From Chitinophagaceae bacterium (GTDB lineage Bacteria; Bacteroidota; Bacteroidia; Chitinophagales; Chitinophagaceae), in assembly GCA_024707305.1 (NCBI GenBank), contig JANPZZ010000010.1, positions 45,531 to 109,530 of the forward strand: DNA of 64,000 nt, in the 5' to 3' direction. This document shows positions 1 through 53,131 of the stretch, in pieces. Both the position numbers and the translations under genes were made by a program. The notes below the pieces were generated by a model. That model was not told the origin of the DNA. It worked only from the letters and a program-made list of their open reading frames with translations, and searched no databases. Numbering within the stretch: position 1 is the stretch's first letter; the number at the start of each line of letters is the position of its first letter.

Positions 1-339
1 GCCGTGCATTGGGCACTAACGAGTCAGTGGGTTTATAAAGTTGCCGGCATGCTCCTGGTTGCCCCCGCCGATACGGATCATTCGAATATACCCGCAGTAG
101 CCCAATTTGGCTCTGTGCCACTGGAGCCACTTCCAGTGAAGAGTATTGTTGTTGCCAGCATCAACGATCCACATGCTGTCATCTCACGCCAGGCCGCCTT
201 TGCTGCCTACTGGGGCAGCAAATTTAAAACCGTGGGCTACAAAGGACATATTAATGCATTGTCGGGGTTGGATGAGTGGCAGGAAGGAATAACATATCTT
301 TTGGAACTTATTAGAGAGGAGAATAATGTGGCAATGTGA
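1..339 (+). CDS. alpha/beta hydrolase, YdeN/RBBP9-type serine hydrolase (C-terminal part; 5' end outside window)
   Basis: ORF 4..339 is open to the window edge. The C-terminal motifs VASINDPH and GYKGHINALSGLDEWQEG resemble YdeN-type serine hydrolases. The last residues and the stop (337-339) lie inside the adjacent repeat arm. Confidence 0.55.
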   Translation, partial: AVHWALTSQWVYKVAGMLLVAPADTDHSNIPAVAQFGSVPLEPLPVKSIVVASINDPHAVISRQAAFAAYWGSKFKTVGYKGHINALSGLDEWQEGITYLLELIREENNVAM

Positions 340-510
340 CAATTGAAAATGTGGAAATTAGGAAATGAGGAAATGAGAAAATGAGAAAATATGTCTCTTC
401 CCCAGCGGACTTCACTAAACTTTAATGGTCACATTTTCCCATTTCCACATTTCCTCATTTCCACATTTCCTCATTTCCTCATTTCCTAATTTTCTAATTT
501 TCACATTTAC
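324..510. repeat. hairpin element: GGAAATG-type 7-nt tandem arm (324-390), 40-nt centre (391-430), CATTTCC-type arm (431-510)
   Basis: Read directly: gtggaaattaggaaatgaggaaatgagaaaatgagaaaat ... cccatttccacatttcctcatttccacatttcctcatttcctcatttcc. The arms are reverse complements with period 7. The element sits between convergent gene ends. Confidence 0.85.
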
Positions 511-704
511 TTCTCTATTTCCTTCAATATCTTATTCACGTCTTCTTCCGTGCTGCTCAGTTTTTCGCGGCAGATGCGGATGAGTTCGCTGGCGCGTTTT
601 ACTTTTTGGGAGAGTTCGTCCACCGATATTTCACCAGATTCAATTTCTTTGGTGATGGTTTGCAGTTCAAAAAATGCGTCTGTATAAGTAATAGATTTAC
701 TCAT
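507..704 (-). CDS. xseB: exodeoxyribonuclease VII small subunit
   Basis: 65-aa ORF that looks like a helical hairpin protein (TDAFFELQTITKEIESGEISVDELSQKVKRASELIRICREKL). It overlaps the stop of xseA by 8 nt, the classic xseA-xseB arrangement. Confidence 0.85.
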   Translation of the reverse strand: MSKSITYTDAFFELQTITKEIESGEISVDELSQKVKRASELIRICREKLSSTEEDVNKILKEIEK

Positions 705-2112
705 TCGGTTCCTGTTTGTGCAACGAAGTTACAACGCTGCTGATATTTCCTTCGTATAAATGCGTACTGATCTCATCGCCGGGTTTCAGGTCTTTAATGT
801 CTTTAACTAATTTTCCATTGATGCGCGTAATGCTATAACCACGCTGCAATACACTTGCAGGACTCATCAAATCCACCTGTTTGGCGATGTTATGCAATTC
901 CGTTTGTTTATCACGCAACGTCTGCGCGGAATGTTGCTGCAGTTGCTGTCTAAACTGTTTTAAAACCTGATACGCTTCTTTCAACACCACTTTTGAATCT
1001 TTCCTCAACAGCACCGCGTGTTGTTTCAATTGTTGCTGGTTATCATTCAGCGCGCGTTGTGTTACCAGTTTAAAAGAACGGAATTCGGCGGTAAACCGGT
1101 TATTTTCATTTGCCAGCAGTTGACGCGATTTTTCTATAATGTTCTTTTCCGCCTCCTGAACTGGTACAGAGAAATTGTGAAACAACTGCATCAGGTATTC
1201 CGCCAGTTTGGTGGGTGTTATTGCATTGAAATGTGAAACCATTTCAGTAATGGTTTCATTGGTGCTGTGCCCGATACCTGTAATTACCGGGATCGGGAAC
1301 TGGCACACTATGCTGGCCAGTTTATAATCGTTGTAACAGGTGAGGCCAACATCGCCGCCACCACCACGTATGATGGCGACAACGTCAAAGTGGTGACTCA
1401 CACTGCGGATGCGATTGAGTTGCCGCGTAATATCTGCCGCCGATTTATCGCCCTGCAAAAGCGCGGGAAAAAGCATGTGAAAGAATCGATAACCCCAGGG
1501 ATTATTATCCAGCACGCTCATAAAGTCGGAATACCCCTTGCTGGTTTCAACGGATATAATTGCGATGCGCTTTGGCAACAGCGGCATCTCCAGCAGTTTG
1601 TTGAGATTAAACAAACCTTCATTGCGAAGCCTTTGCAGGTTCTCCTGTTTCTCGCGCTCCAGGTCGCCCAATGTAAATGAAGGATCAATATCCAGAATGG
1701 TAAGGGATAAGCCATACACAGGATCGTAGCCTACTTTGGCAAGCATCAATACTTTGATACCATCTTTCAGCGGCTCGTGCAAAACTTCCTGGAACAGGAG
1801 GTTAATGCGTCGGTAATCATCACGCCAAAGGTTGGCGCGGATTTCCGCAATTATTTTCCCCTCTTTTTTCTCCACCAATTCGGGATAAGCGTGACCCGAT
1901 TGCCGGTAAAAGTTCAGCTTATTCATTTCAGCCTTCACCCAAAAGCTGCTGGTATATCGCTCCATCAGCGTTTTTTGAATGCTGCGCGTTACTTCCAAAA
2001 GGGAAAATACTTTTCTATCGTTTATTTGTTCTGCCAACAAATTCAAATTTCGGTCTTTTTGAAATATAAAATTTGCGACGTCCGCAACTCTGAATATCTT
2101 AGAATATACCAT
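697..2112 (-). CDS. xseA: exodeoxyribonuclease VII large subunit
   Basis: 471-aa ORF with an N-terminal OB-fold region and a catalytic core containing IIRGGGG and GIGHSTNETI, followed by a coiled-coil C-terminus. Confidence 0.9.
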   Translation of the reverse strand: MVYSKIFRVADVANFIFQKDRNLNLLAEQINDRKVFSLLEVTRSIQKTLMERYTSSFWVKAEMNKLNFYRQSGHAYPELVEKKEGKIIAEIRANLWRDDYRRINLLFQEVLHEPLKDGIKVLMLAKVGYDPVYGLSLTILDIDPSFTLGDLEREKQENLQRLRNEGLFNLNKLLEMPLLPKRIAIISVETSKGYSDFMSVLDNNPWGYRFFHMLFPALLQGDKSAADITRQLNRIRSVSHHFDVVAIIRGGGGDVGLTCYNDYKLASIVCQFPIPVITGIGHSTNETITEMVSHFNAITPTKLAEYLMQLFHNFSVPVQEAEKNIIEKSRQLLANENNRFTAEFRSFKLVTQRALNDNQQQLKQHAVLLRKDSKVVLKEAYQVLKQFRQQLQQHSAQTLRDKQTELHNIAKQVDLMSPASVLQRGYSITRINGKLVKDIKDLKPGDEISTHLYEGNISSVVTSLHKQEPNE

Positions 2113-2746: not shown

Positions 2747-2819
2747 TCGTTGTATTATACCCGCTTCAAGGTATTTCCCGCCACAACCACCATGTTATTT
2801 TTGGAAAAACGTCTTTCTC

Positions 2820-3293: not shown

Positions 3294-3302
3294 AAATAAA
3301 AA

Positions 3303-3328
3303 AGCTCCCGGCAAACCGGGAGCTTTTC
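3303..3328. terminator. bidirectional rho-independent terminator
   Basis: The stem agctcccgg / ccgggagct has a caaa loop. An A-run lies upstream and a T-run downstream. It sits between convergent genes ending at 3293 and 3338. Confidence 0.65.
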
Positions 3329-3337
3329 TACCTTTTA

Positions 3338-4587
3338 TCAAAATGCGCGTTTCACCCTGAACTTACCGTTAAATGATGTTGTTGACAACAATAACGGTCC
3401 GATTCCGGCAGGGTTAGCCTGGAAGGTTCCGCTAATATAACCGTCGTCTTCACCCATACTGGTAATAGTTACACCACCGCCGCTTTTTGCAGCCTGCCTT
3501 CTGCGGTTGCATAAAAACAGGTATAAGAAGCTCCGCCCGCAATTTCGTAGTGAGCGTGCGTGCCTAACACTTGCTCTGGTTCCTTAAACGCGTGTGAGCC
3601 TACACCGCCTTCCCACATCACGAATACATAGCTGCCAACATCATCACCGTCGGCATCACCAAAACCATACAGGTTTTCAGCAAACTTTACCACCGGCGAC
3701 GCCATCCTTTTTGTAGCAGCTCCACCGCCTACTGCAATTTCAAGTTCGCTTTCATCATCTGTGATGGTGATATGTGCGACTAACAGAAATTTTCCTCTTT
3801 GTTTAAAATCAAGTTCCACACTCACAGCAACAGGGTTGGGTGCGGTAGGGACAGCCGAAGGCGCTTTGTAGGTGCCTTTTGCGCCATTTCCTGTAAGACG
3901 GCCTGCTCCTGCCAGCTTCCATTTTTTTACATAGGTTCCGGTAAGATCCACTACTTCACCAACCGGCCATTCTTCACCAGGTGCCAGCGGTACAAAATAG
4001 GCCGCCGACCAAACTTCCATTTCCACAGTACCATTTACCGGTACCGTTGCTGTAGGCGGAACGATTTTACAGGTCTCATAAAAACTCCAGTCGCTGAAAT
4101 GCGTGGTTGTTACGGTAAATGTTTTCTGCGTTTTGTTAAGCACTCCTCCTCTCGATTGCCATACACGGTTTTCGTCCTGGTATGCAATACCAAGCAATTC
4201 AGGAGCGCTGCTTTTCACGTCTGCATCCGTATAATTAAATCGGATATTGACAGGTTTTTGAAATGTAATTCCGTGTGGTTGCAGGCGATAGGCTTTTTCA
4301 GCACCCATCGGGTTTTCATCCGTAATGGGCGTAATGCTGATTTCAACATTCTCTGTTACTGCGCCTGCCGGGAACTCAAGTGTGATACGTCCATCTGCAC
4401 TTGATAAAGTGCCGCCAGCCGTGCCGATTGTTTTTCGGGCTACGGTTCCATTCAACACAGTGCCTATTGCAGTTACCTTGCCTTCGGGCCGCAGCGGATC
4501 GATGGAATTATCTTTCGAATCTTTTGAGCACGACAGCAGTCCCGTCAACAGCATCATGCTGCACAAAACAACACAAATCTTTTTCAT
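3338..4587 (-). pseudogene. hypothetical lipoprotein (one frameshift near 3470-3500 as sequenced)
   Basis: ORF 3469..4587 has a lipoprotein signal (LLTGLLSCSKD). In another frame the reading continues as GGGVTITSMGEDDGYISGTFQANPAGIGPLLLSTTSFNGKFRVKRAF and stops at 3338, directly next to the terminator. Confidence 0.5.
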
Positions 4588-4671
4588 AAATAAGGTCTAA
4601 TGGTTTACAGTAATTAATCTGCTGCAAAATGCAGCCGATAAATCCGTAGAAAAAACGGCGATAGAATGAAT

Positions 4672-5130
4672 TGAAGAATGAGGGGGATGAAGTGGAGGGA
4701 GATCGATGATCGATGATCGATGATCGTTGATCGATGGTCGATGTCCGATGACCGACTAAGACGGAACCTTCGGGAGTTTGGGGCTTGGTCGATGATCGAT
4801 GACCGATGTCCGATGACCGATGTTCGATGGAGGAAACAAATTTTTGTTCGATGGATGCGTCGTCCCGAAGGGACGGGATATCTGTAGCAACGAAATTCAT
4901 CAAATCGCCTGAGTCCCGAAGGGACGACATGTGAGCGGGGAATCGATGACGGGTAATCGATGACCGATGATCGATGATCGATGGTGAATGGATGCCGAAT
5001 GTGCGTGATCCCACTCCCTACGGCCGGAGCGAACTTTTGGCCTGTTAGGCGAACATCGGACCTCGGACATCGATCATCGGACATCGGTCATCGATCATCG
5101 GACATCGATCATCGGACATCGATCACCGAT
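4672..5130. repeat. composite hairpin element: CGATGAY heptamer arrays (4701-4757, 4788-4830, 4941-4985), centre 4986-5052, inverted RTCATCG array (5053-5130)
   Basis: Read directly: gatcgatgatcgatgatcgatgatcg... on the left and ...catcgatcatcggacatcggtcatcgatcatcggacatcgatcatcgg on the right. It fills the divergent intergenic region between 4587 and 5149. Confidence 0.85.
4788..4945 (+). repeat. dispersed ~150-nt module, copy A (heptamer array + twin GTCCC-GAAG-GGAC hairpins)
   Basis: 4857-4945 aligns by hand to the reverse complement of 39160-39252 at about 74 of 89 positions. The only divergent part is an 11-nt segment between the two hairpins. Confidence 0.8.
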
Positions 5131-5148
5131 TCTCTCTATCTTTACCCC

Positions 5149-5631
5149 ATGCCTAAATCACATCACTACACCGCAAACATTGAATGGACCGGGAATATGG
5201 GAACCGGAACTTCCGGCTATCGGGATTATGGACGTGAACACGTGATCCGGATTGAAAACAAGGAAAGCATTTATGGTTCTTCGGATCCTGCATTCAGAGG
5301 TGATCCGCTGAAACATAATCCGGAAGAAATGTTGGTGAGTTCGTTGTCAACCTGCCACATGCTTACGTATCTGCACCTTTGTGCTGTAAACAACATCGTG
5401 GTTGTAAAGTATGAAGATGAAGTAACGGGAACAATGGAAGAAACGCCCGATGGTGGCGGGCATTTTACGGAAGTAGTGTTGCATCCCAGGGTTTGGGTAG
5501 CCAATGAATCAATGAAAGCGAAAGCAAGAGAATTGCATCATCAGGCGAATCAGCTTTGTTTTATTGCGAACTCTGTAAACTTTCCGGTAAAACACGAGCC
5601 CGAAGAGGTATACGATCCATCAATCAGTTAA
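5149..5631 (+). CDS. OsmC family peroxiredoxin-like protein
   Basis: The start is taken at MPKSHHYTANIEWTGNMGTGTSGYRDY; the upstream 56 codons of ORF 4981..5631 are repeat translation. OsmC-type motifs are present (NPEEMLVSSLSTCHMLTYLHLC). Confidence 0.8.
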   Translation: MPKSHHYTANIEWTGNMGTGTSGYRDYGREHVIRIENKESIYGSSDPAFRGDPLKHNPEEMLVSSLSTCHMLTYLHLCAVNNIVVVKYEDEVTGTMEETPDGGGHFTEVVLHPRVWVANESMKAKARELHHQANQLCFIANSVNFPVKHEPEEVYDPSIS

Positions 5632-6391
5632 TGTTTTTCTTCCGCGCCCATCGCGAATAAAGCGAAATCATATTTCACCGGATCATTAGCATCGAATGTT
5701 TTTAATCGCTCCGTTAATTCCACAGCGGCACGCCAGTCGGTTGGCTCACGTTTCAACAACCCAAGTTTTCTTGCCACCCGGGCTACGTGTACGTCAATGG
5801 GAATAATCAATTGAGAAGAGGAAATATTTTGCCAGAGGCCGAAGTCAACGCCTTTGTTATCTTTTCGCACCATCCATCTTAGAAACATATTCAGCCGTTT
5901 GCAGGTAGATCCTTTATGCGGGCTGGCAATATGCTTTCGCGTGCGCGCTGGCACATCTTCGAGCGAGAAAAAATAATGATGAAAACCGGTGAGTTTTTCT
6001 TCCATACCACCATCAAATTGCGTGAACGCCGTTTCAAGACTCTCATGCCTTTGATAGTGGTATCGGAAGAACTCAATAAAATAAAGCAGGTCAGTATCGT
6101 TGAATGTACGATGCCTGAAGCCTGCCAGTTGTTCTAATTGCGACCGCGATGGGATGCGCATACAAAATTCATAGGGTACACGATCCATTCTATCCATCAG
6201 TTCCGCTGTTTTGCGGATGATGGTCGTACGATTTCCCCAGGCGAAAATGGCAGCAAAGAATGCAACAATTTCGATATCCTGCTTACGGGTAAATTCGTGA
6301 GGAATACGGATAGGTCTTCCTGGATAAAAAACGTACGGTTAAATTCGTTTACCTTTTTATCGAGAAATAACTTTAAAGCTGCATCATTCAT
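5628..6391 (-). pseudogene. TIGR02757 (DUF2400) family protein, one frameshift near 6318
   Basis: ORFs 6197..6391 and 5628..6197 join if one C is added in gaagacctatcc. The restored reading is IQEDPIRIPHEFTRKQDIEIVAFFAAIFAWGNRTTIIRKTAELMDRM, the typical family N-terminus. Confidence 0.7.
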
Positions 6392-6411
6392 GCAGCGAAT
6401 TTACAAAATCG

Positions 6412-6700: not shown

Positions 6701-6868
6701 AATCCCTGTAATCTGTGTCGCAATCCGTGTTGTAATCTGTGTTCATCTGTGTTGTCATCTGTGTACATCTGTGTGAAACATCCTCGAAATGAAATCTTCT
6801 TCTTCTTGGGGAGGTCTCCCACAGATGTCACACAGATGACAACACAGATTTACACGGATAATTGCACG
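6701..6868. repeat. hairpin element: ATCTGTGT-core units with 10-12-nt period (6701-6775), centre, CACAGAT-core units (6819-6868)
   Basis: Read directly: taatctgtgtcgcaatccgtgttgtaatctgtgttcatctgtgttgtcatctgtgtacatctgtgtg ... ccacagatgtcacacagatgacaacacagatttacacggat. Confidence 0.8.
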
Positions 6869-11841: not shown

Positions 11842-11900
11842 ACATCGATCATCGACATCGATCATCGTTCATCGACCATCGTTCATCTATCATCGATCAT
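11842..11900. repeat. one-armed RTCATCG heptamer array
   Basis: Read directly: acatcgatcatcgacatcgatcatcgttcatcgaccatcgttcatctatcatcgatcat. The stop codon of the downstream gene (11890-11892) lies inside the array. Confidence 0.75.
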
Positions 11901-13114
11901 TCAGCCACGGCATCTCCGGAATCAATGCCGGCACCTTATAGTAGTTGTTGCGCAGGCTATCATTCCAGCCGTTGGGGTTATTGTCAAATGTTTTTGAACT
12001 GAAGTAAATACTGCCGTGAATATTTTCGCTTTTACGCAGGAGCTTTATCTGGTTAGGCAACTCATTAGGATTCTTCCACGCGAGAGAGCGTTCATTTACT
12101 CTGTAAATACCGTGGCCGATGTATACGTGTCGGCCATAACTGTTTTTCGCCCACCAGTCCAGCATCGTTTTATAATCAATTTTGTCATGGCCGATTTCAA
12201 GATATAACTGAGGAGCTACATAATCGATCCAGCCTTTTTTCCAACCAAAGAAGAATGTCGGCATAGAGATCGTCGTAATTCGTTTGACCGGCTTTTGTAT
12301 TGCTACCACGCTCGTCTTTATCCTTGTTGCGCCACACACTGAAAGGAGAGATGCCAAATTTCACTTTTGGTTTCACCTGCCTGATGGCAACATGCAGTTT
12401 TTTTATAATTGAATCCACATTGCTGCGGCGCCAGTCGTCTTTGCTGAGTTTACTTCCTGATTTAACGTATGCAGCTGCATCAGGAAATTCTTTTCCGGCA
12501 ATACGATAAGGATAGAAGTAATCATCCATATGAATCGCATCCACATCGTAGCGGCTTACAATATCCTGCACCACTTTTACCACAAAAGCCTGCGCCTGTT
12601 TATTCGATGGTTCGAAGTATTTTTTGTCACCGTACGTTACAAACCAGTCGGGGTGCAGTTTGGTAACATGATTGGATGCGATAGAAGCTGTTTTTACATT
12701 GAAGTTGGCTCTATAAGGGTTCAGCCATGCATGAAATTCCATTCCTCTTTTATGCGCTTCATCAATCATGAACTGCAGTGGGTCGTAATAAGGAGTGGGT
12801 GCTTTGCCCTGAGTACCCGTAAGCCACTGGCTCCAGGGTTCAAGTGAAGAGGGGTAAAATGCATCACCCGAAGGACGCACCTGCACAATCACCGCATTCA
12901 TACCATTTTTCTTATGCATATCCAGTATCCGAATATAGTCAGCACGTTGATTGGTGGGATTATTATAATCGGCACGTTTTGGCCAGTCAATATTATCTAC
13001 TGTGGCAATCCATACACCGCGGAATTCATGCGTAGGTTGCGCAAATAATTGTACTGAAACAAAAAGCAAAAACAGAAAGGATAGTTTTTTCAAAAGCATG
13101 GTAATATTATTCAT
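11890..13114 (-). pseudogene. glycoside hydrolase family 10-like (YngK/GHL10-type) secreted protein, one frameshift at T6 run 12235-12240
   Basis: ORFs 12197..13114 (signal peptide, FRGVWIATVDNIDWP) and 11890..12357 join if one base is removed from the homopolymer. The restored reading is LLWLEKGWIDYVAPQLY. Confidence 0.65.
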
Positions 13115-14930: not shown

Positions 14931-15158
14931 GGAGGAATTGAGGGGGGAAGATGGGGGATGGGGGATGGTGGATGGGGGATGGAGGATGGTGGATGGGGGA
15001 TGGAAGATAGGGGAGGGAAGATAGGGGATGGAGGATGTATTTTTAGAGTGGGGGAAACCCGATCTTGCATTTAAATGGGGTATGTTTCCGCTCGCCCGGT
15101 CCTTCCACCATCCACCATCCCCCATCCTTCCTCCTTCCACCATCCACCATCCCCCATC
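14931..15158. repeat. hairpin element: GGGGATG-type 7-nt arm (14931-15037), 63-nt centre, CCATCCC-type arm (15101-15158)
   Basis: Read directly: gatgggggatgggggatggtggatgggggatggaggatggtggatgggggatgg ... ccaccatccaccatcccccatccttcctccttccaccatccaccatcccccatc. Confidence 0.85.
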
Positions 15159-15161: not shown

Positions 15162-16579
15162 TTACACTTTCACCATCTTCCACTTCCCTTTCCGGAAAAT
15201 GAAATAAGCCGCGATGGCGATGGCGGTTTCGGCAACGGGGATGGCAATGAACGCCCCTACGGGACCCCAACCCAGCACCATTGCCAACAATATTCCCAAC
15301 GGGATCTGAAAAAGCCAGAATCCAAAGAAATTGATCAGTGTAGGCGTTTTTGTATCGCCGGCCCCATTAAGTGTTTGTATCATCACCATACCAATTCCAT
15401 AAAAAATGTAACCGGCGCCGATAATCTGCAACGCCTGCGCGCCGATGTCGACAACAGCAACATCATTTGAAAAAATGCTGATGATGGCTCCTGGGAAAAA
15501 CACAAACAAAACCGTAACGAATGACATAAACACAGCATTGTACTTCGCTGTAAGCAATGCACTGGTTTCCGCACGCTCAGGTTTTCCGGCGCCCAGGTTC
15601 TGACCCACCAGGGTTGCAGCCGCATTACTTAATCCCCATGCAGGAAGTATAAAGAATATTACATTGCGCATGGCTACCTGGTATCCTGCCGATGCTTCGG
15701 TACCGCCCGTATGCGCCACCAGCCATGCCAGCACTACCCAGCTGCCAGAAGCCAGCACAAATTGAAATGTTGCAGGCCATGCAAGTTTTGTGAGTGACTT
15801 CAACACGGTGAAATCGGGAAGAAAATCGGCTTTCTTCATGCTGATATTTCCCTTGCCACGCCACAGGTGCCAGCATTGATATAACACACCCACACCGCGG
15901 CTAATGGTAGTAGCCACTGCTGCACCTTCCAGTCCCATGCGAGGGAACGGCCCCAGGCCTTTAATCAATACCGGACAAAGGATAATATTGAGTATGCTCG
16001 CCAGCCAAAGACTTTGCATGGCCATTACAGCATTGCCGGCTCCACGGAAAATACCATTGATCAAAAAAGTAAAACGATCACAACACTACCTCCCAGCATA
16101 ATCCGCGCGAAATTCGTCCCTTCTTTCACCACATCGGGTTCGGCACCCATGATGCGAAGAACATCCGCAGCAAATACAAATCCGAGTATGCTGATAATGA
16201 TTGTGACCAGTAATGAAATAATAATCGCCTGCGCACCTGCATGCGATGCCCCTTCGCGATTCTTCTCTCCAATACGTCGTGCTACCGTAGCAGTAGCTGC
16301 TATACTTAATCCCATCGCGATGGCGTACACCAACGATATTACAGACTCGGTAAGTCCCACCGTTTGGATCGCATTCTTTCCCAATTCTCCTACGAAATAC
16401 ATATCCACCACAGCGAAAACGCTCTCCAACCCCAACTCAAGAATCATGGGTATGGCAAGTAATACAATTGCTTCGCGAATGCTTCCTGATGTATAATCAC
16501 GCTCTTCGCCACGCAGCGTTTGACGTATAAGTGCCCGGTAACGGGCAGATTTATTCCTGTTTGTCCCGGTTTGCGACAT
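15162..16579 (-). pseudogene. MATE family efflux transporter, one frameshift at A6 run 16063-16068
   Basis: ORFs 16061..16579 and 15162..16064 abut out of frame. Both are polytopic membrane sequence typical of MATE (N-terminal IREAIVLLAIPMILE .. VDMYFVG). Confidence 0.75.
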
Positions 16580-17117: not shown

Positions 17118-20100
17118 ATGTTATTACCTCCTGACCACTCATTACAGGAAAAATATAAACGCTGGTCCTATTACCTGCAGGTAGTCCTTATACTCCTGCC
17201 GATTCTGGTATTGCTGGGATGGCAATTTGAAATTCCCGTCCTGCGTAGAATGGGTTCTCCTGTCATTGGTATGGCGCCCATTACCGCAGTTTGTTTGTTG
17301 CTGGGCGCATTTTCGCTTTTGTTTATTCATTCAAAACCTGATAAACGATCTTATCAAAAAACGGGTTTGATATTCGCAGTTATTCTCCTCCTTATATCAC
17401 TCAATCGCTTTTTTGGAGAGTTTACAGGTTGGGATTTGCCATTGGATACATTGCTGTATGCAGAGCAAATGAATATACTGTCGGCCCAAAAAAATAGCAT
17501 CAATCGGCTTAGCCTCAATAATTCATTTTGCTTTTTGCTGATTGCCATTTCCCTGGTGCTGGCTTATAAAAAAACGGAGAAGTGTTATAGAATTGCGCAA
17601 TACCTGATATTGATGTTAGGTCTCATCAGCCTGATGTACCTGCTTAGTTATCTCTATCAAAATCCGCGATTTTTAGGTATGATGCGTATCATGCCAATGG
17701 CATTGAATTCAGCAGCGGGGTTTTTTATTTTCAGCTTTGCCTTTTTCTATGCCTGGCCCGACAGAGGATTGATGCGACAGATCACCACACGCCTCAGTGG
17801 AAGCCTTACCGCCAGGGTGTTGTTGCCGGCAGCAATCCTGTTGCCATCGTTTTTTGGGTTACTTCGCTTATGGGGTTACTGGCGCGGATTTTATGATAAT
17901 GAATTTGGCGTAACGATCCTTTCTCTCTTTACGATTATTACCATCATCGGTATTGCCTGGTTCACCGCCGTATCGTTGAATAAAAGAGAACTGGAACAAC
18001 TACGGATCCGTAAGCAACTGGTGGATCGCCAGCAGGAGATCAATGCCATTTTCCAAAATGCACCTGATGCAGTAGTGATACTCGACAGCAAAGGTCTTGT
18101 TGTTAAATGGAACCCTGAAGCAACGCGGCTCTTTGGCTGGAAAGAACATGAAGTGGTAGGCGGAGACCTTGGTGATTATATTATTCCGGAAGAGCTACGC
18201 GAAAAACACAGATCAAGTCTCGCCAATTATAATAGAGAAGGGAAAAAATACAATCATCGGTAATACCATCGACCTGTGGGCCGTAAAAAGAGACGGCACA
18301 CCAGTGGATATCGCCATCAGGATATCACCATTTGACCTGGAGGGAAAAACATTCTTTATCAGCTTTATCCGCGACATTACCCAGAAAAAACAACTTGAAG
18401 ACCGGCTTAAGACTTTCAACGAAGAACTATCAACACAGGTAAAGGAAAAAACAGAAGAACTTACTGATATTCTCGATCGTATCACCGATGGATTCATTGC
18501 CGTGGATCGTGATTTTGTTTATACTTATGCCAATAAAAAAATTGGTGAACTTACTGGTATAGATCCCAAAGAGATGATAGGACGCCGCGTATGGGATGTT
18601 TTTCCCGATGCAGTAGGGTCTGAAACCTTTAAGGCTTTTAAAAAAGCCATGCATACGCAAACATTTGTTTCCAATACCGACCATTTTCAACCTTTGAATC
18701 TCTGGCAGGAGAATCATATTTATCCATCGAGCAGGGGTCTTTCCGTTTTTATTCGTGATATCTCTGAAAAAATGCGCACCGAAAAAGAGATGGATAAAGT
18801 GAGATCAATGGCCGATACATTGATCGATAGCCTGCCGGGTGTGTTTTATTTCTACGACCAAAATGGAACGTTCATACGGTGGAACCGGCAATTTGAAATT
18901 GTGACTGGTTATTCCGGCGAAGAAATCGCAAAAATGCATCCCTCACAATTCTTTGCCGATGACCAACAGGAATATATTGCCGACAGAATACAGGGTGTAT
19001 TCGAAAAAGGAGCCAATGATGCAGAAGCTGATTTAGTACACAGGGATGGAACACGCACACCACATTTCTTCAAAGCCACACTTGTAATGTACGATGGTAA
19101 GCCATGCCTGTTAGGAACCGGAATCGACATGACAGAGAAACGACAGGCAGAAGAATTCCTGAAAATGTCGGAGTTGAAATATCGACTCCTCTTTTCAGCC
19201 AACCCGTTAGCCATGTGGATGCTGAGCCTGCCTGAATATAAAATCATTGAAGCCAACGATTCGGCATTAAAACAATACGGATACGAAAGGGAGGAGTTTT
19301 TGGATTTGGATGTAGCGAAACTGTATTCAACCGAAGACCTGGAAAAATTGAAAGAACAGACCAACATCAGTTTCCGGGGCATTCACTATGCTGGCGTATG
19401 GCGACATATGCGCAAAGATGGTAACGTTATTTATGTTAATATTGTTACGCACGACACCTGGTACGAGGGGCGCGCGGTTAGACTGGTACTGGGAAATGAA
19501 ATTACTGAACAATACCTGGCCGAAGAGCGATTGAAAGAATCCTATTCCAGCATTAAGCGTTTAACAGAGCACTTAAACAGCATTCGTGAACAGGAGCGTT
19601 TACATATTGCCCGCGAAATTCATGATGAACTGGGCCAGTTGTTGACCGTATTAAAGATGGATGTTTCCTGGTTAAACAGAAAACTGAAGTCCGAAGAGGG
19701 CCCTATTAAAGATAAACTCACTGATTTATCGGCATTGTTGGACACGACAGTAAGAACGGTACGCAGGATCAGCTCCGAATTGCGGCCCAGTCTTATTGAT
19801 GACCTTGGCCTGGTGGCTGCAATGGAATGGCATATGGATGAGTTTAGCAAACGCTCGGGAGTCATTTGTTCTGCCGAGTTCCCTGATACAGAACTGATAC
19901 TCTCAGACAGTGTGAAGATTGGTCTTTACCGGATTTTCCAGGAATCATTGACAAATGTGGGTCGGCATGCCGAAGCAAAAAATGCGCACATAGTGTTGCG
20001 AAAAACACAGAATCAATTAATTTTAACGATTCAGGATGATGGAATAGGATTTGATGAAACAAAGAGAAACAAAAAAGACTTTGGGATTGATTGGTGCCCG

Positions 20101-20215
20101 TGAACGTGCAGAAGGAATTGGCGGCACTTATTCCATAACGGGAGAACCCGGAAAAGGAACACTGGTAAAAGTGGTGATTACATTGTCCGAATCAGGCGAA
20201 AAAAATTCTAACTAA
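17118..20215 (+). pseudogene. membrane-anchored multi-PAS sensor histidine kinase (HisKA_3 type), frameshifts at A6 runs 18243-18248 and 20071-20076
   Basis: The N-terminus is a multi-pass membrane domain, followed by several PAS segments, the H-box HIAREIHDELGQLLTVLKMD and an ATPase domain. The out-of-frame tail reads TLGLIGARERAEGIGGTYSITGEPGKGTLVKVV up to the stop at 20213-20215. Confidence 0.8.
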
Positions 20216-37004: not shown

Positions 37005-37022
37005 GGGATAATGTTGCGAGCC

Positions 37023-37233
37023 GGCAAACGACAAACGGCAAACGGCAAACGGCAAACGTGAAAAGAAATTTGCAAATGATGAGACCTATGCGTATTCTGC
37101 GTAAAAGTTTCTCTCCGGAGAAGGTTCTCACAGATTACACGGATTTGATCACAGATTACGCAGATTTTTAACTTTCATATTTGCCGTTTGCCGTTTGCCG
37201 TTTGCCGTTTGCCGTTTGCCGTTTGTCGTTTGG
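37023..37233. repeat. nested hairpin element: GGCAAAC arm (37023-37058), 121-nt centre containing CACAGAT-type units and a TCTCCGGAGA palindrome, GTTTGCC arm (37179-37233)
   Basis: Read directly: ggcaaacgacaaacggcaaacggcaaacggcaaacg ... ctcacagattacacggatttgatcacagattacgcagat ... tttgccgtttgccgtttgccgtttgccgtttgccgtttg. Confidence 0.85.
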
Positions 37234-37246
37234 CGAATCTCACGCC

Positions 37247-39113
37247 TCACATCAGCAACGCTCCCGCCGCAAGGTATCTCCATTCATACGCTTTGGCATC
37301 ATACGCATCAGTTGCTGCGTGGGTAGTTGCCAAAGCTTTTTCATTCAACACTTTTTGTTTTACCAGTTCGCGTTTTGATTCGTGAATTAGTTCCTGCATA
37401 CGCGCATCCTGCATCCATTTTTTTTGCGGAGGCTCAAAGCCAACTTTGTCTTTGCGCCAGGTGATGCTTTCCGGTAAACAGGATTGCATACTGGTTCGGA
37501 GCAGCCATTTAGTCCAGCCGTCTCTTATTTTGAACGAGGCAGGAAGCGTAAAGAGGAACGCTACCATTTTATGATCAAGGAACGGAAGGCGCAGTTCACG
37601 ACCATGATGCATGGCATTCCGATCCGCATAGCGCAGCAATTCTTCCAAACCATGTACACAAGTGTTGAAATGAAGAAGTCCATTCAGGTTTCTTATTTCG
37701 GGTGCTGTATAGTACGCGGCACGACTTTGTTTTTTTACAAACTCCTGATGCAAATCTTCATGACGTAGTGCATTCACGAGGTATTGCCGTTCCAGGATTA
37801 CAGCAGCAAGTTCAGGGAACAAAGCCGCCATCACATTCTTAAAACCAAATTCTTCCGTCACACCCAGCTCGCGGGCTTTGCCGATTTCTTTACTTCGCAG
37901 CAATTTTCTTTTTGAAATAATTCCTGCCAGTACCACTTATAGTATTTATTATACCCTGCAAGTGTTTCGTCGGCGCCTTGTCCGTCGAGTAGTACAACCG
38001 TGCCCTGTTGTGCTGCCGCCTCAAAAGTTTTGAATTGTGCAAACACGCTGGCAGACCCTATTGGCTCTTCCTGTATGTTAATCAGTTTCCGCCATTCATC
38101 GGCAAGATCAAAAGCTACCGGCTCCACCGTATGATGACAAAATCCAAAATGCGCGGCAACCTGTTGCGCCATTGCCAGTTCATCTTTTTCAAAGCCGGGG
38201 GAAATGCGCCGTAAAACAATCAAACGAAGAAGGGTCGGCAATATGTTGTTGTATAAAACATGCAATGCTACTGCTGTCGAGCCCACCGCTTAAGGATGAT
38301 CCAACTTTTACATCGCTGCGCAATCTCCGCTTTACCGATGCGGACAGCATCGATGTGAATTTTTCCTGTGCCTCTTCCGGTTTAATTTTTACGTTTTGTT
38401 CATCCGTATCAATATCCCAGTATTTTTCAATCTCCAGCTTGTGGTTGTGTAACGAATAAAATAACCGGCTTGCAGCAGGAAGTTTATGTATTCCCTCAAA
38501 AAACGTCTCTTCGGGTTTTGCAGGATTATCGGTGTATCCGATTGTAATAAAATTGAAAAGCATGCGGGGATTTACCGTGCGCATCACACCTGCTGCCCAC
38601 AGTGCTTTCATCTCTGAAGCAAAAAAGAAACTGTTGTTTATCCTTAAAAAAATAAAGAGGTTTTTCACCAAAACGATCTCGCGCGGCAAACAATTCTTCA
38701 TTCTCATGATCCCAAATAGCAAAGGCAAACATGCCATCGAAGTGTTCCACACAATCGTCCTGCCAGTAGTCATAGGCGGCAAGAATTACTTCCGTGTCCG
38801 ACTGCGTCTTAAACTGGTAACCCTCGTTTCCGAGCTCTTTACGTAGTTCAATGTAATTGTAGATCTCGCCGTTGTGTACAATGCTGTATTGGATGGTGTT
38901 CCTTTCCCGGTCCGAAAAATGCATCGGCTGCGCCGCATTCTCCGAGAGATCGATTATGGCAAGTCGGCGATGGCCAAGCATTACCTTCTGGTCGCTTCGG
39001 CTCCAGTGCCCTTCACCATCCGGCCCCCGATGCGCCAGCGCATCCGTCATGCGATGCAAATGCACGGGACCAAAACGCGGCGTTGATTGTATGATTCCTG
39101 CAATTCCACACAT
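37247..39113 (-). pseudogene. asnB: asparagine synthase (glutamine-hydrolysing), three frameshifts as sequenced
   Basis: The start is at MCGIAGII (Ntn Cys2). The fragments 38526..39197, 38189..38782, 37858..38286 and 37247..37936 read through, with the PP-loop SLSGGLDSS in the second fragment. Confidence 0.85.
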
Positions 39114-39159
39114 GATTCGTTGCCCGAAGGCTATGTAAAAAATTAAATTTATCGACCCT

Positions 39160-39310
39160 CGATTCCCCCGCTCATATGTCGTCCCTTCGGGACTCATTTC
39201 ATGGGGAGAAATTCATTGCTACAGATATTCTGTCCCTCCGGGACGGCGCGTGTATGCGATCAAATTTACGACCTCCCCCGGACATCGATCATCGATCATC
39301 GACCTTCCAT
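39160..39310 (-). repeat. dispersed ~150-nt module, copy B (inverted relative to 4788-4945)
   Basis: The reverse complement reads gcgccgtcccggagggacagaatatctgtagcaatgaatttc...tgagtcccgaagggacgacatatgagcgggggaatcg. It is flanked by the catcgatcatcgatcatcgac array (39281-39314). It fills the whole asnB / DUF2911 intergenic region. Confidence 0.8.
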
Positions 39311-39954
39311 CATCTCACATCAATCCCCAGCTTCGCCACCACATCATCCCAGGCCAGCACTAAATTCGCGCCATTTTCACTATTCTCAAAAGTGATAGTG
39401 AAAAATTCCAGCCGTGGATTTTCGCGCGTTACAGGAACCACTACTCTTTGCACATCGGCCGTTGTATCCTGTTGCAATCCCCAGGTATCTGTATTACTGT
39501 TGATTACAATCGTCCATTCATTTTCCTGGGGAATACAGTAAAGAATATAACGGCCCTGCTTCAGGCTCTTACCGTCAATCTTAACATCGCGGAAGAATTC
39601 AATCTCGGTTGATTCATTCGCGCCAAGTCGCCAGGGAACTCCATAAGCCAAAATTTCAGAGAAATTTCGGCGTGACAGATGCGGTCTGCTATACACAACC
39701 CGTATTAGCGGACGCGCAACCAGTTTACCATTGGCCATCTTCAACTTGGGATAGTCCAAAGGAAAATAAACCATGTCCATGGGCGACCGGTCAGGACTGG
39801 TATAATAAGGGTTGTTGGCTACAACATCAACTGTATCGTTCTGCTCCAGCTTTGCAGTATCTTCTGGCGGCGGCTTCGGCGGCTCAGCTGAATTGTTGCA
39901 GGAGAACAATACAATTCCGAGAAAACAGGTTCCAATCAGTTTTACTTTGTTCAT
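39310..39954 (-). CDS. DUF2911 domain-containing protein
   Basis: 214-aa ORF with a signal/lipoprotein N-terminus and family-typical motifs (RVVYSRPHLSRRNFSEILAYGVPWRLGANESTEIEF .. GRYILYCIP .. WTIVINS). Confidence 0.7.
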   Translation of the reverse strand: MNKVKLIGTCFLGIVLFSCNNSAEPPKPPPEDTAKLEQNDTVDVVANNPYYTSPDRSPMDMVYFPLDYPKLKMANGKLVARPLIRVVYSRPHLSRRNFSEILAYGVPWRLGANESTEIEFFRDVKIDGKSLKQGRYILYCIPQENEWTIVINSNTDTWGLQQDTTADVQRVVVPVTRENPRLEFFTITFENSENGANLVLAWDDVVAKLGIDVR

Positions 39955-40575: not shown

Positions 40576-40650
40576 CTGCACACGGAGTTTTCGAACATAA
40601 GTTACGGAGTTGTCAGTTATGCAACCTCCGTGTGACTCCTCCGTTTGCAG
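40576..40650. repeat. short hairpin element with CACGGAG / CTCCGTG units
   Basis: Read directly: ctgcacacggagttttcgaacataagttacggagttgtcagttatgcaacctccgtgtgactcctccgtttgcag. The outer 12 nt are near-perfect inverted repeats. Confidence 0.7.
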
Positions 40651-42371: not shown

Positions 42372-42390
42372 TTAATTTTTGAAAAAACAA

Positions 42391-43222: not shown

Positions 43223-43660
43223 ATGAAAAAAATAACTATTCTATTACCCGTATTACTCGCAGCGGTGCTGATGAGTTTTACAACTCCTGGTGAAAATGAT
43301 CTCGCTCGCCAGAATTTCAGCCGCCAGTTTGCCGGTGCGGAACATGTGAAATGGACTACGCTGGACAATGACTTCCAAAAAGCCAGTTTCGTTTGGGGCG
43401 GCAGCCGCACTGAAGCTTATTTCACAACAAAAGGTGAGTTTGTAGGTGCTATCCGCGGCCTGCTGTTTCAACAACTTCCGCTGGTAGTTGCACGTATGGT
43501 GGATCAAAAATTCCAGAACCGTGTAATTCTCGAAGTACGTGAAGTAACCAATGCCGAAGGCACATCTTACTCTATCCTGATGGACTGGAAAAACAAACGC
43601 TACCGTGCCCGCCTCCAGGCCGATGGTGCTGTAATTGAGAATGAGGTGGTGAGGAAGTAG
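43223..43660 (+). CDS. small secreted protein, PepSY-like/BLIP-like (tentative), paralogue 3
   Basis: The start is taken at MKKITILLPVLLAAVLMSF within ORF 43112..43660. The motif is ARQNFSRQFAGAEHVKWTTLDNDFQKASF. Confidence 0.5.
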   Translation: MKKITILLPVLLAAVLMSFTTPGENDLARQNFSRQFAGAEHVKWTTLDNDFQKASFVWGGSRTEAYFTTKGEFVGAIRGLLFQQLPLVVARMVDQKFQNRVILEVREVTNAEGTSYSILMDWKNKRYRARLQADGAVIENEVVRK

Positions 43661-43663
43661 GAA

Positions 43664-43830
43664 TTCGATGACCGATGTCCGATGACCGATGATCGATGAA
43701 GTCTGACAATGCAGGATACCCACCTGAATGCGGGATCGGTATACTTACAGTCTAAACCTACATCGACCATCGGTCATCGGTCATCGGTCATCGACCATCG
43801 GTCATCGGTCATCGGTCATCGATCATCTAT
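43664..43830. repeat. hairpin element: CGATGAC-type arm (43664-43700), 60-nt centre (43701-43760), GTCATCG-type arm (43761-43830)
   Basis: Read directly: ttcgatgaccgatgtccgatgaccgatgatcgatgaa ... catcgaccatcggtcatcggtcatcggtcatcgaccatcggtcatcggtcatcggtcatcgatcatc. Confidence 0.85.
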
Positions 43831-43850
43831 CTTTTCCTTACTTTTGCTCC

Positions 43851-47044: not shown

Positions 47045-47080
47045 AGCGGAAGATTGAACTGTGAAGTTACACTATAAAAC

Positions 47081-47302
47081 AAATGTGGAAATGTGAAAAT
47101 GGGGAAATGTGGAAATGAGAAAATGAGAAAATGAGGAAATGTGACAATGTGGCAATATGTAAATATGTAAATGAGAAAATTTGGGGTTAAATAATTTCGG
47201 AAAATATAGAACACGGTTTCAATTTTCTTCATTGCCACATTGACACATCGTCATATTAGCACATTTCCCCATTTCCACATTTACCTCATTTCCACATTTC
47301 CA
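47081..47302. repeat. hairpin element: GGAAATG-type arm (47081-47180), 50-nt centre, CATTTCC-type arm (47231-47302)
   Basis: Read directly: aaatgtggaaatgtgaaaatggggaaatgtggaaatgagaaaatgagaaaatgaggaaatgtgacaatgtggcaat ... attgccacattgacac...cacatttccccatttccacatttacctcatttccacatttcc. It uses the same oligomer family as 324-510. Confidence 0.85.
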
Positions 47303-48159
47303 TCTAGCTCCATTCTTTCATCTGCAACTCCTGTCTTTTTGTTGATGCGCGTTGCGAGAATGATACTGGCTTCAAATAAAACATAAAGAGGAATGGTCAC
47401 AATCACCAAACTAAAAGGATCCGTAGTAGGTGTAATGATCGCCGCCATGATGATGATCACTACAAATGCGTGACGGCGGTATTTGCGAAGGAAACGGCCG
47501 GTGACGATGCCAATTTTTGCAAGTATCATCACCAGTAATGGCATTTGGAAAAGAACCCCAATGCCTACCGTTGTATAAATCAGGTTTTCGAGATAATCAC
47601 CGAATGTTGGTTTGATTTCAATCAGCGGGCTCAGCGAATATGAGAAGTAAAAGTTTACCATAAACGGCGTCAAAACAAAATATCCAAAGAATACGCCGAT
47701 AAAAAATAACAATGAAACCCAGAATATAACACCTGTGGTTCCCTTTCTTTCTTTTTCAGATAAAGCAGGTTTTACAAAACGCCAGAATTCCCAGATGATA
47801 TAAGGGAAGGCAACAATAAAACCACCCACAAATGCAATCGTAAATGATGAAATGAACTGTCCGGTAAGTTGTGTACTTAAGAAACTCACCTGTACGCCCT
47901 GCATACAAAGTCCGTCGCCCATACCGAGCTTTCTCCCTAACTGGCAAAACCAGTGATAGGTAATAAAATTATCCTGTGCAGGTGCGAGAATTACCTGGTG
48001 AACAATTTCACGTACATACATGAAAACAACAATCGCGCCGACGCCAATCGCGATCACTGAACGGATCAAATGCCATCTCAATTCCTCAAGATGGTCTATA
48101 AACGACATCTCTTCCGTACCCTGTTTCTTCCTTCGGTTAATAAAATTTAAAAATCCCAT
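47281..48159 (-). CDS. tatC: twin-arginine translocase subunit TatC
   Basis: 292-aa polytopic ORF containing MSFIDHLEELRWHLIRS (an alternative start at 48108 is possible). The last codons and the stop lie inside the repeat arm. Confidence 0.88.
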   Translation of the reverse strand: MGFLNFINRRKKQGTEEMSFIDHLEELRWHLIRSVIAIGVGAIVVFMYVREIVHQVILAPAQDNFITYHWFCQLGRKLGMGDGLCMQGVQVSFLSTQLTGQFISSFTIAFVGGFIVAFPYIIWEFWRFVKPALSEKERKGTTGVIFWVSLLFFIGVFFGYFVLTPFMVNFYFSYSLSPLIEIKPTFGDYLENLIYTTVGIGVLFQMPLLVMILAKIGIVTGRFLRKYRRHAFVVIIIMAAIITPTTDPFSLVIVTIPLYVLFEASIILATRINKKTGVADERMELDGNVEMR

Positions 48160-48239
48160 TGCTGTTTCAAAATGCGGGCAAAAATACGAAAGGAGTTTTA
48201 AGTGGGAGGACTTATTACTGGTTCCTTATTTCTGGTAGC

Positions 48240-49493: not shown

Positions 49494-49667
49494 ATCGTAA
49501 AGATAGAGCGCAAAACGGGAAATTGGAAAAAGCCGTCCATTTTGGAATGGAATATGCTGAAAAGGAGGTAGTCCTTCAACAGGGAAGGAATCAATGCCCT
49601 GTAATAATCGCGCAGGTTCGACGCAACATCAGCACAAATTTCTTAATTTAATAGTTATTCATTCCCC

Positions 49668-50838: not shown

Positions 50839-50849
50839 AAGAACAATGT

Positions 50850-51701: not shown

Positions 51702-51910
51702 TACGCAAGATTTTGAGAGTTGAGTCGAAGATTTGATTACGCCCCGAAATCGGCAACTTTTTACACAGCCTGTGGTATACCGACGCGAAAGCGTTTCCAA
51801 ATAGCCTTTAGCTCCAGGAAATCTTCCTTGTTTTTATACAGCAATCGTTCTTCCGTTAATCTACTACATGAATCATGCCCCGAGGTATTTGGTACGGAAG
51901 TCGTATTTTG

Positions 51911-53092
51911 ATGAAAATGCATAGAACAACTATTTTACTGTTCCTGTTTGCCTTACAGGTTCCGCTGATTAGTAACTCGCAATCTACAAATGCCGGGCTT
52001 ATACAGCGCTACCCCTTTCTGAATATTTCGCAGAACCGGATACAACAGCCTTCACATCTCGACAGCTTTTTTCAACAGTTAGCGCTCACTGGTATAACAG
52101 AAGGATCTGTGGTTTCGATTGTTCATATTGGCGACTCGCACATTCAACCTGATTTGATGGGCCAGGTATTGAGGCAAAGTTTTCAGCAACGCTATGGCAA
52201 TGCGGGCCGTGGCCTGGTGTTTCCCTACCAGCTTGCGGCATCTAATAGTCCCGACGATGTGAGAACCAGTTCCCCACAACGCTGGCAATTTAACCGGCTC
52301 GCCCATCCCGAAATAAATACTCCATATGGAATTTCAGGATATGGTATCGTTAACAATAACAGCACAGCAGAATTCCGTTTGCAACTGCGCGGATCGGGTA
52401 GCACAGCAAACCACTTTTCGCGCATGCTACTTTTCACCGACAGCAGCAGCACCTGGACTGCAAAGCCCACCGGCAGCGATAGCACATTTGTTCTGAATAG
52501 ATCTGCGGAATACAATTTTCTACACGAACTTATATTGCCTGATACTGTAAACGACATCACTTTTTCCGCCATCGATTCTTTTCAAAAACCTTCGTTATAT
52601 GGAATTGAATTATCTAATAACAGACCCGGTGTTACATTTCACAGCATCGGCGTAAATGGCGCGCGGGTAGATCATTTCAACCGGGCTGAAAAATTCTGGG
52701 AGCAGTTGCCCATATTGAAAGCGAAACTTTACATCGTATCGCTGGGCACCAATGAGGCGCAGGCCCGCGTATTTAACGAAGCAAATTTTTTGAAAGAATT
52801 GCAGAAGATGCTGACGCGCCTGCGTGATATTTCTCCGGACGCGAGTTTTCTTTTTACTACGCCACCAATTTCTTTTCGGGGAAAAATGATCAATCCCAAT
52901 CTGGAGCGGATTCGGAAAACGATTGTCTCATTTTGCAAGGTGAATAATATCGCCTGCTGGGATCTGCGTTCTGTATTATCAACACGCAGCGGGTTCCTTC
53001 GCATTATGCACCGCGACCGGATCCATTATACTGCTGAGGGTTATCGATTGATGGGGAGGCTGCTGAGAGAATCGATGATCGATGGTCGATGA
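51911..53092 (+). CDS. SGNH/GDSL hydrolase family protein (secreted)
   Basis: The start is taken at MKMHRTTILLFLFALQ. Block I is IVHIGDSHIQPD, block III is SLGTNEA and block V is DRIHYTAEGY. The last codons are heptamer-array sequence (ESMIDGR). Confidence 0.7.
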   Translation: MKMHRTTILLFLFALQVPLISNSQSTNAGLIQRYPFLNISQNRIQQPSHLDSFFQQLALTGITEGSVVSIVHIGDSHIQPDLMGQVLRQSFQQRYGNAGRGLVFPYQLAASNSPDDVRTSSPQRWQFNRLAHPEINTPYGISGYGIVNNNSTAEFRLQLRGSGSTANHFSRMLLFTDSSSTWTAKPTGSDSTFVLNRSAEYNFLHELILPDTVNDITFSAIDSFQKPSLYGIELSNNRPGVTFHSIGVNGARVDHFNRAEKFWEQLPILKAKLYIVSLGTNEAQARVFNEANFLKELQKMLTRLRDISPDASFLFTTPPISFRGKMINPNLERIRKTIVSFCKVNNIACWDLRSVLSTRSGFLRIMHRDRIHYTAEGYRLMGRLLRESMIDGR

Positions 53093-53131
53093 TTGTTGAT
53101 CGAGCCCCCTTCGGGGTGTCGGGGGGCTACT
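53072..53131. repeat. one-armed CGATGAT array followed by a GC hairpin
   Basis: atcgatgatcgatggtcgatgattgttgatcg is followed by agccccc-ttcggggtgtcg-gggggct. It lies between convergent gene ends (53092 and 53141). Confidence 0.65.

Follow-up and report, generated by a model that had tools for sequence, protein, structure and literature searches.

Paired short-unit arrays in the intergenic regions

The stretch of DNA analysed here, called the window, comprises 64,000 nucleotides of the Chitinophagaceae bacterium assembly GCA_024707305.1 (contig JANPZZ010000010.1, positions 45,531 to 109,530 of the forward strand) and contains about 60 open reading frames (ORFs), among them xseB, asnB, tatC, rpiB and genes encoding OsmC, a MatE protein and deoxyhypusine synthase. 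About one third of its larger intergenic gaps contain a long hairpin whose two sides are matching runs of a 7-12-base repeat. Arrays were located with Tandem Repeats Finder (TRF), the pairing of arms was established by an inverted-repeat search, and folds were calculated with RNA and DNA parameters. At 10 of the 11 loci to which a preliminary description had assigned one architecture, TRF found arrays with units of 7-12 nt; it gave 20 rows for the real sequence, while 20 order-2 Markov simulations of the window, used as a control for chance, contained no such array. Seven of these loci (E1-E7, Table 1) show the full architecture, consisting of an array, a unique centre and the reverse-complement array: four are built from a 7-mer, two from an 8-mer and one from a 10-12-mer. 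Three further loci (S1-S3) show a single array without a partner arm, all of the ATCGATG type and each placed on the 3' end of a gene. The remaining locus, 40576-40650, was rejected as an array element and is an ordinary imperfect hairpin (z = -3.5) with two irregularly spaced ACGGAG copies per side. The 7-nt unit length of the preliminary description applies to four elements; E1 and E7 have 8-nt units, a length confirmed in the short-read contig L009.

The inverted-repeat search paired the arms at 325-508, 4698-5130, 14950-15158, 37015-37242, 43652-43842 and 47081-47292, with an arm complementarity of 70-93%, and E3 was paired by its fold (6726-6868). The arms contain 34-104 nt of tandem units, with arrays of up to 13 units of 8 nt, and in the simple elements they are separated by spacers of 44-121 nt. 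Each of the seven elements folds into one long hairpin of 176-464 nt, the z values ranging from -5.6 to -11.2 for RNA on either strand (-9.8 for the E3 hairpin) and from -7.9 to -10.8 with DNA parameters; the DNA-fold controls, 11 intergenic regions of the window that have no array, gave -0.6 to -4.6. All arrays are intergenic, or their overlap with a gene is confined to its last few codons. At least five unrelated unit sequences are present in the 64 kb, most of them unable to form a G-quadruplex (G4); ATCGATG arrays are found at five of the 10 array loci, and GGAAATGN and CACAGAT at two loci each. The preliminary description was right that the two arms of a locus match and that their sequence differs between loci, complementarity and periodicity being what is shared, and also that the elements lie between convergent (E1 and E5), divergent (E2 and E3) and same-strand genes (E4, E6 and E7). 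The E5 centre contains, at 37128-37167, a degenerate CACAGATTA array whose type is that of the E3 right arm; with a weak partner at about 37085-37100, it looks like an older hairpin array nested in a younger one. Since this inner array sits in E5, elements can nest.

Table 1. Full elements (E1-E7) and single arrays (S1-S3) of the window, with their parts and neighbouring genes.
Element	Position	Strand	Arrays and centre	Gene context
E1	325-508		left arm AATGNGRA (8-nt) 325-390; centre 391-434; right arm 435-508	convergent Ser_hydrolase (stop 337-339, within left arm) and xseB (stop about 508-510, right-arm end)
E2 (composite)	4701-5130		same-sense left arrays (ATCGATG type) 4701-4755, 4790-4829 and 4936-4983; right array (CATCGGA type) 5050-5130; unique stretches separate the arrays	divergent ZU5-like gene (start 4587) and OsmC (start 5149)
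E3	6707-6868		left arm ATCTGTGT with spacer, period 10-12, 6707-6775; centre 6776-6819; right arm CACAGAT with spacer 6820-6868	divergent DUF5670 (start 6557) and GNAT gene (start 6900)
E4	14950-15158		left arm GATGGGG 14950-15037; centre 15038-15099; right arm CCCCATC/CCACCAT 15100-15158	same-strand MatE (end 15162) and radical-SAM (start 14907)
E5	37022-37232		left arm CGGCAAA 37022-37058; centre 37059-37179; right arm TTTGCCG 37180-37232	convergent 148-aa ORF (stop 37004) and asnB fragment (stop about 37247)
E6	43666-43827		left arm CGATGAC 43666-43699; centre 43700-43760; right arm CATCGGT 43761-43827	same-strand ORF (end 43660), then deoxyhypusine synthase (start 43851)
E7	47081-47302		left arm AAATGTGG (8-nt) 47081-47184; centre 47185-47229; right arm 47230-47302	same-strand tatC (true stop TAG abuts right arm) and rpiB (start 47044)
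S1	11843-11900	-	single (ATCGATG)n; no partner arm	read in GHL10 gene direction
S2	39283-39314	-	single (ATCGATG)n; no partner arm	3' end of DUF2911 gene (stop 39310), then dispersed repeat of about 95 nt
S3	53071-53103	+	single (ATCGATG)n; no partner arm	encodes last ~7 codons and stop of GDSL-lipase gene (stop 53090-53092)

Relationship between arms and centres

In each element, the left arm and the reverse-complemented right arm were aligned with their outer ends as anchors. These alignments show 85-95% identity in a single register over 43-77 nt, and rare variants are present in both arms of an element: the second unit is CGACAAA in the two arms of E5, and CAATGTGGCAAT is found in the two arms of E7. 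In E6, complementarity reaches into the flank which holds the stop codon of the left gene (AAGTAG / CTATCTT). Where one arm is longer, it shows additional units at its inner end or a duplicated multi-unit block, as in the right arm of E6, which contains a 28-nt higher-order block twice. Because of the single register and the shared rare variants, the arms are taken to have arisen by inverted duplication of an array that had already diversified, with later slippage in each arm, and not by two independent expansions. The centres show no common sequence, either in an all-against-all BLAST of the centres or in a MAFFT alignment of those of E2 and E6, and this holds also where two elements have a unit in common; the centres often include a small tetraloop hairpin that is GC-rich. 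The array edges grade into the flanks and show no sharp ends.

Arrays in independent assemblies

Two short-read contigs from Logan assemblies of other runs and samples, L009 and L010, match the window at 99.67% identity over 4.3 kb. Both ends of these contigs fall inside arrays, one of them in the first left array of E2, and both contigs read through the right arm of E1, which contains eight units instead of the 10 of the window and one different variant unit. Since short-read contigs carry the arrays with another copy number, the arrays are real and vary between near-identical strains.

Compared with L009, the window shows two homopolymer indels in the 4.3 kb. In addition, several genes are split by frameshifts: asnB in about four pieces (37247-39112), MatE (15162-16579), GHL10 (11890-13114), histidine kinases (22333-24250 and 17118-20103), the tatC C-terminus (47281-47340) and the ZU5-like gene (3469-4587). 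The splits are probably long-read assembly errors and not pseudogenes, and the source metagenome-assembled genome (MAG) is probably a long-read assembly, an origin that would explain why arrays are spanned in it while short-read contigs break at them. The indels and the many split genes could suggest that the arrays themselves are assembly or sequencing artefacts of a long-read MAG. However, short-read assemblies of two samples hold array edges and the whole right arm of E1, the 8-nt unit is seen in short reads, and comparable complete elements are present in other assemblies (L137, L060, L059 and L078), so that an artefact has a negligible probability and is effectively refuted. Because short-read assemblies break at them, such elements are probably under-reported in MAG-based genomics.

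Gene ends and terminators

In every case in which the 3' end of a gene is adjacent, an arm abuts or overlaps its stop codon, and the three single arrays, read in gene direction, supply the stop codon of their gene. S1 replaces the last ~10 codons of GHL10, which ends in ...MPWLNDR* in the window and in ...MPWLPPRPAAGVQP* in L013, and comparison with orthologues shows that Ser_hydrolase has gained the extra residues ENNVAM from its array. As judged from these comparisons, arrays have rewritten protein C-termini. Once its homopolymer frameshift is corrected, tatC ends in ...KEWS* as in its relatives and its TAG stop touches the E7 array directly. Next to E4, a variant unit, GATGGTG, can be read inside the 3' end of MatE, and a small GC-rich hairpin lies 3' of S3.

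None of the elements contains a consensus terminator or a T-tract, and their assignment to the intrinsic (Rho-independent) terminators, which have a short GC-rich stem-loop and then a T/U tract, was rejected. Canonical bidirectional intrinsic terminators, with an A-tract, a perfect 12-17-bp stem and a T-tract, are present elsewhere in the window (3300-3327 and 60373-60408), which indicates that ordinary terminators are used where no array element sits.

Orthologous sites in related genomes

The tatC-rpiB junction, which contains (GGAAATGN)n arms in the window, shows (GGTGTTR)x4, 24 nt and (YAACACC)x3 in L137 (GCA_031423115.1), whose rpiB is 82% identical, and this array pair forms a hairpin with z = -6. 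E7 and its L137 counterpart thus share site and architecture and differ in unit: the hairpin is retained while the unit changes, a pattern that the preliminary description had proposed to look for between relatives. The more distant L002, L005 and L138 show spacers of 27-45 nt and no array at this junction. Downstream of xseB, the GGAAATGN array of the window is replaced in L011 (85%) by a (CGTGAAR) array that starts at the stop codon. In L140 (81%) this site contains no array and has a canonical bidirectional terminator, whose position is occupied by E1 in the window, and L013 (67%) shows a simple hairpin that includes the stop codon. In both L011 and L137 the stop codon lies within the first unit.

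The end of xseB in L140, GAAGGAAATGGGAAAGTGA, contains the exact GGAAATG core of the E1 unit. We estimate that an exact 7-mer would be met by chance in a stretch of 20 nt with a probability of about 10^-3, and the E1 unit therefore appears to be derived from the 3' end of xseB itself. The tatC 3' end was not counted as evidence of seeding, since only 5-6 of its 8 positions match the E7 unit. The YjbR-xseA element of L011, which forms a weak hairpin (z = -1.4), was not counted as a full element. No arrays were found in L002-L008, distant relatives that had been picked by deoxyhypusine synthase, a protein too conserved for choosing close relatives. Between sodA and mutL, the distant relative L138 contains an inverted pair, (CGCAAAGA)x3 at 12526-12548 and (CTTTGCGC)x3 at 12794-12816, 245 nt apart, which may be a rudimentary element of the same kind.

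Elements in other genomes and polarity of the arms

A metagenome scan for (ATCGATG)3, for which we estimate a chance expectation of less than one match, gave at least 120 stretches in contigs of 28-72% GC; some arrays among the matches listed have 22-54 copies (L038, L040 and L116). The flanks of these matches contain inverted array pairs with quite different units: GAGAAGC/CTTCTCG and GTCGTTA/CTTACGA in L060, CGAGAAG/CGCTTCT twice in L078, (GGATGAG)x15 / (CTTCATC)x11 in L059, and various units in L020, L035, L131 and others. L060 belongs to the Gemmatimonadota; in its element at 6105-6290 (z = -13), a core hairpin has an array on either side, and these arrays directly adjoin two convergent stop codons. 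The two hairpin elements of L078 (4917-5023 and 7406-7496) lie 2.4 kb apart in a contig of 68% GC and have in common a conserved centre (CGGGAAnATCnCTCCGCTA) and a left flank (CTGATCGAGAAG); because of this conserved centre, whole elements may have dispersed in that genome.

Polarity was scored in the 21 pairs that passed a uniform criterion, seven of them in the six TRF-paired elements of the window and 14 in other loci. The GC skew of the left arm is positive in 20 pairs, including all 14 outside the window, is neutral in E5 and is reversed in none. The fixed arm order that had been described for the window thus extends to other genomes, the arrays being convergent, with the G-rich array first on the plus strand and then on the minus strand. 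Birth of the arrays from the sense strand of a gene end, which is rich in purines and contains the stop codon, would give a G-rich 5' arm; alternatively, selection could act against the exposure of unstructured, C-rich RNA.

Origin of the elements

We read the elements, with evenly balanced confidence, as palindromic microsatellites that have grown where they sit, and as neither transposed elements nor RNA genes. Growth would begin with the tandem duplication, by replication slippage, of a 7-12-nt stretch beside an intergenic stem-loop, often at a gene 3' end; heptamer repeats are in excess in bacteria, which fits such a step. The nascent strand could then fold on the central stem and use its opposite side as a template, by the intramolecular template switching known as the quasi-palindrome mechanism, so that the array would be written inverted on the far side of the centre; it is the register-true inverted duplication of the arms that suggests this switch. 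Each arm would afterwards gain and lose units or multi-unit blocks, as can be seen from the unequal arm lengths, the block duplications and the copy-number differences between strains. Outward growth would continue until selection on coding sequence halts it, which would account for arms that abut or overwrite stop codons. A transcript across an element would have a hairpin of 40-110 bp. This hairpin is likely to work as a barrier in the manner of a terminator, as an insulator or as a target of RNases, although such a role may be incidental.

Several observations weigh against growth in place. Locally seeded units should be specific to their locus, yet ATCGATG, GGAAATGN and CACAGAT recur in the window. 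ATCGATG arrays are present in more than 120 unrelated metagenome contigs, which needs either convergence or dispersal; convergence is plausible because ATCGAT is a palindrome and the unit is therefore quasi self-complementary. The conserved centre of the L078 elements points to some copies having spread whole in some genomes. Evidence for seeding is strong at xseB only and is suggestive elsewhere, and template switching is deduced from the register of the arms and not from an observed event. The polarity rule is also followed by E2 and E3, although these are flanked by divergent genes and have no 3' end close by. Finally, selection for hairpin function could give an identical picture.

This last explanation is considered unlikely. 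In it, the elements are RNA or DNA hairpins under selection, which could serve as terminators, as insulators of operons, as RNase III sites or to stabilise mRNA 3' ends; the arrays are simply the mutational path by which a long stem is reached most easily, and compensatory changes maintain complementarity. The high stability on both strands, the arms adjoining gene 3' ends, the position of E1 where L140 has its bidirectional terminator and the presence of hairpins with different units in two lineages at the tatC-rpiB junction would all be expected from it, and the polarity rule could be a property of transcription order. On the other hand, the elements lack a T-tract and a consensus terminator, and canonical terminators are used at 3300-3327 and 60373-60408; E2 and E3 occupy divergent promoter regions, where no terminator is needed; and spacers of 27-45 nt suffice for the more distant relatives at the tatC-rpiB junction. 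Three loci are one-armed, and the fall in complementarity from 93% to 70% resembles decay. Even less probable are non-autonomous foldback elements or MITEs (transposable elements of the miniature inverted-repeat type) with tandem arrays as terminal inverted repeats and a transposase encoded elsewhere in the genome. Such an anatomy is known in eukaryotic Foldback elements: the FB transposons of Drosophila show long inverted arms of tandem short repeats around a central loop, are transposase-dependent and have interrelated copies. Unit recurrence (ATCGATG at five loci, GGAAATGN at two), the arms and centre common to the two L078 elements and the orthologous sites without an element in relatives agree with mobility. 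Nevertheless, the centres are unrelated even where the unit is the same, the E1 unit comes from the neighbouring gene's own 3' end, L137 and L011 show another unit at the same site, and the array edges fade into the flanks. The elements thus lack the shared internal sequence and defined termini of MITE and foldback families. A Pfam scan of the ~60 ORFs found no transposase, integrase or Y1/RAYT protein in the 64 kb, as had been stated before, and, unlike Foldback elements, nothing in the window shows mobility. The earlier wording that intergenic space is colonised by these elements is accordingly not retained, since unrelated centres, a gene-end-derived unit and different units at the same site point to growth in place.

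Paired binding-site arrays for a nucleoid-associated or global regulatory protein, as proposed for IHF/HU in Geobacter metallireducens, are a very improbable explanation. The anatomy is like that of the Geobacter 'global regulator binding sites' (PMC2700814), and the 7-8-nt periodicity and intergenic location fit; however, at least five unrelated units are found in 64 kb, no motif is common to all of them, the unit switches at one locus between close relatives, and copy number differs between strains.

Growth in place may also be one case of something wider. It is possible, although doubtful, that a general and unnamed mutational process builds self-extending palindromes from slippage-prone 7-8-mers, starting at gene 3' ends or terminator hairpins, and is at work in four or more bacterial phyla that are distant from each other (Bacteroidota, Gemmatimonadota, Gammaproteobacteria and Desulfobacterota). 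A coupling to transcription or to an RNA product, such as avoidance of Rho or template switching primed by R-loops, would then be implied by the strict polarity, in which the 5' arm is the G-rich one on both strands, and the mutational process would remodel gene 3' ends, replace terminators and be under-counted because short-read assemblies break at its products. The interest of the elements would be high should both the polarity rule and an origin by template switching turn out to be general. An origin by slippage and template switching becomes testable through the gene-end-derived unit, the register-true arms, the unit swap in a relative and the fixed polarity. In practical terms, protein C-termini are rewritten by the elements, which can also take the place of terminators and vary between 99.7%-identical strains.

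Comparison with known repeats

Arrays of heptamer repeats have been an unexplained curiosity of bacterial genomes since the 1990s. Contrary to the statement that no described class has this architecture, it has already been seen in Xanthomonas and Geobacter, where it has neither name nor mechanism. Xanthomonas genomes contain 70-75 convergent inverted pairs of GGGAATC heptamer arrays each, lying on average 28 nt away from the upstream ORF's 3' end, variable in length between species and of no known function or origin (Rehm et al., 2015; PMC4692102). The seven full elements agree with this type in having same-unit arrays on opposite strands with a short variable spacer. Both are intergenic tandem 7-nt arrays, mostly in close convergent pairs with the G-rich array first, near the 3' end of the upstream ORF (with the exception of E2 and E3), and both keep the type of site while their length varies between close relatives. 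However, Xanthomonas shows a single unit genome-wide and the work on it was centred on G-quadruplex potential, whereas the arrays of the window are longer, belong to another phylum (Bacteroidota) and comprise at least five unit families; arm register, seeding and unit turnover lie outside the scope of that paper. In Geobacter metallireducens, three classes of paired opposite-strand sites contain tandem 8-, 9- and 7-nt repeats (GTTGCTYN x4, TCTCCGTS[Y] x3 and MTYCTGA x5) with variable spacing; they were drawn as hairpins, are absent from the sister species and were guessed by the authors to be IHF/HU binding sites (Aklujkar et al., 2009; PMC2700814). These sites resemble those of the window in having several classes per genome, paired arrays and a variable spacer, a likeness that rests on their description, and they differ in having only 3-5 units per site and a class consensus conserved across 8-24 pairs. 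What is new here is the paired-array form in Bacteroidota and the presence of several unit types side by side in one window.

Bacterial heptamer repeats, including those of Bacteroidetes, have been reviewed together with the polymerase-slippage idea of Mrazek et al. (2007); among long simple repeats, 7-nt units predominate, and they are intergenic, lineage-specific and variable in copy number (MacGregor, 2015; PMC4679880). The cyanobacterial GGGGA(C/T)T and the Beggiatoaceae/Bacteroidetes TAACTGA repeats are likewise 7-nt and intergenic, but they are mostly single direct arrays, inverted pairs being rare (one in Maribeggiatoa and a few in Nostoc). In quasi-palindrome template-switch mutagenesis, one arm of an imperfect inverted repeat is copied onto the other, which extends the identity of the arms (PMC7202029; PMC3820800). 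As documented, this process supplies what register-true arms require; the cases demonstrated in reporters of E. coli and yeast concern short tracts and point changes, not the building of repeat arms of 40-110 nt, and the link of the process to the present elements is suggested by their arm register.

The view that REP/BIME elements, MITEs and CRISPRs look different was borne out. REP/BIME/REPIN elements were rejected because 20-40-bp conserved palindromes in near-identical copies would be expected, while the arms found here have 34-104 nt of tandem units and a sequence that differs between loci, and the centres are unrelated. CRISPRs were rejected because the units are of 7-12 nt, contiguous and followed by an inverted second array, in place of direct 24-48-nt repeats with unique spacers of about their own size. 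Regarding catalogued RNA families, Rfam 15 gave no match at gathering score over the whole window, and in E-value mode only sub-threshold chance matches were obtained for 4600-5200 and 39100-39340; the published precedents are paired arrays. The window contains no tRNA genes.

Other features of the window

A dispersed repeat of about 95 nt (GTCCCGAAGGGAC) is present in two copies about 85% identical, at 4855-4945 (+) and 39165-39260 (-). Two tetraloop hairpins, GTCCC(G/T)NNGGGAC, are found in it at a distance of about 50 nt; each copy adjoins ATCGATG arrays, and one of them lies between the second and third left arrays of E2. No further copy was found in 136 loci searched, and no Rfam match was above threshold. 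The 20 kb between 16000 and 36200 are dense in PAS-domain histidine kinases and response regulators, including a multi-PAS kinase of 1372 aa, and have sizeable gaps with no array; arrays are absent from the whole of 15.2-37.0 kb. At 62369-62686, three tandem copies of a unit of about 144 nt (73% identity) are located upstream of, or within, the 5' part of a gene encoding a protein with a Por_Secre_tail (type IX secretion system, T9SS, sorting) domain.

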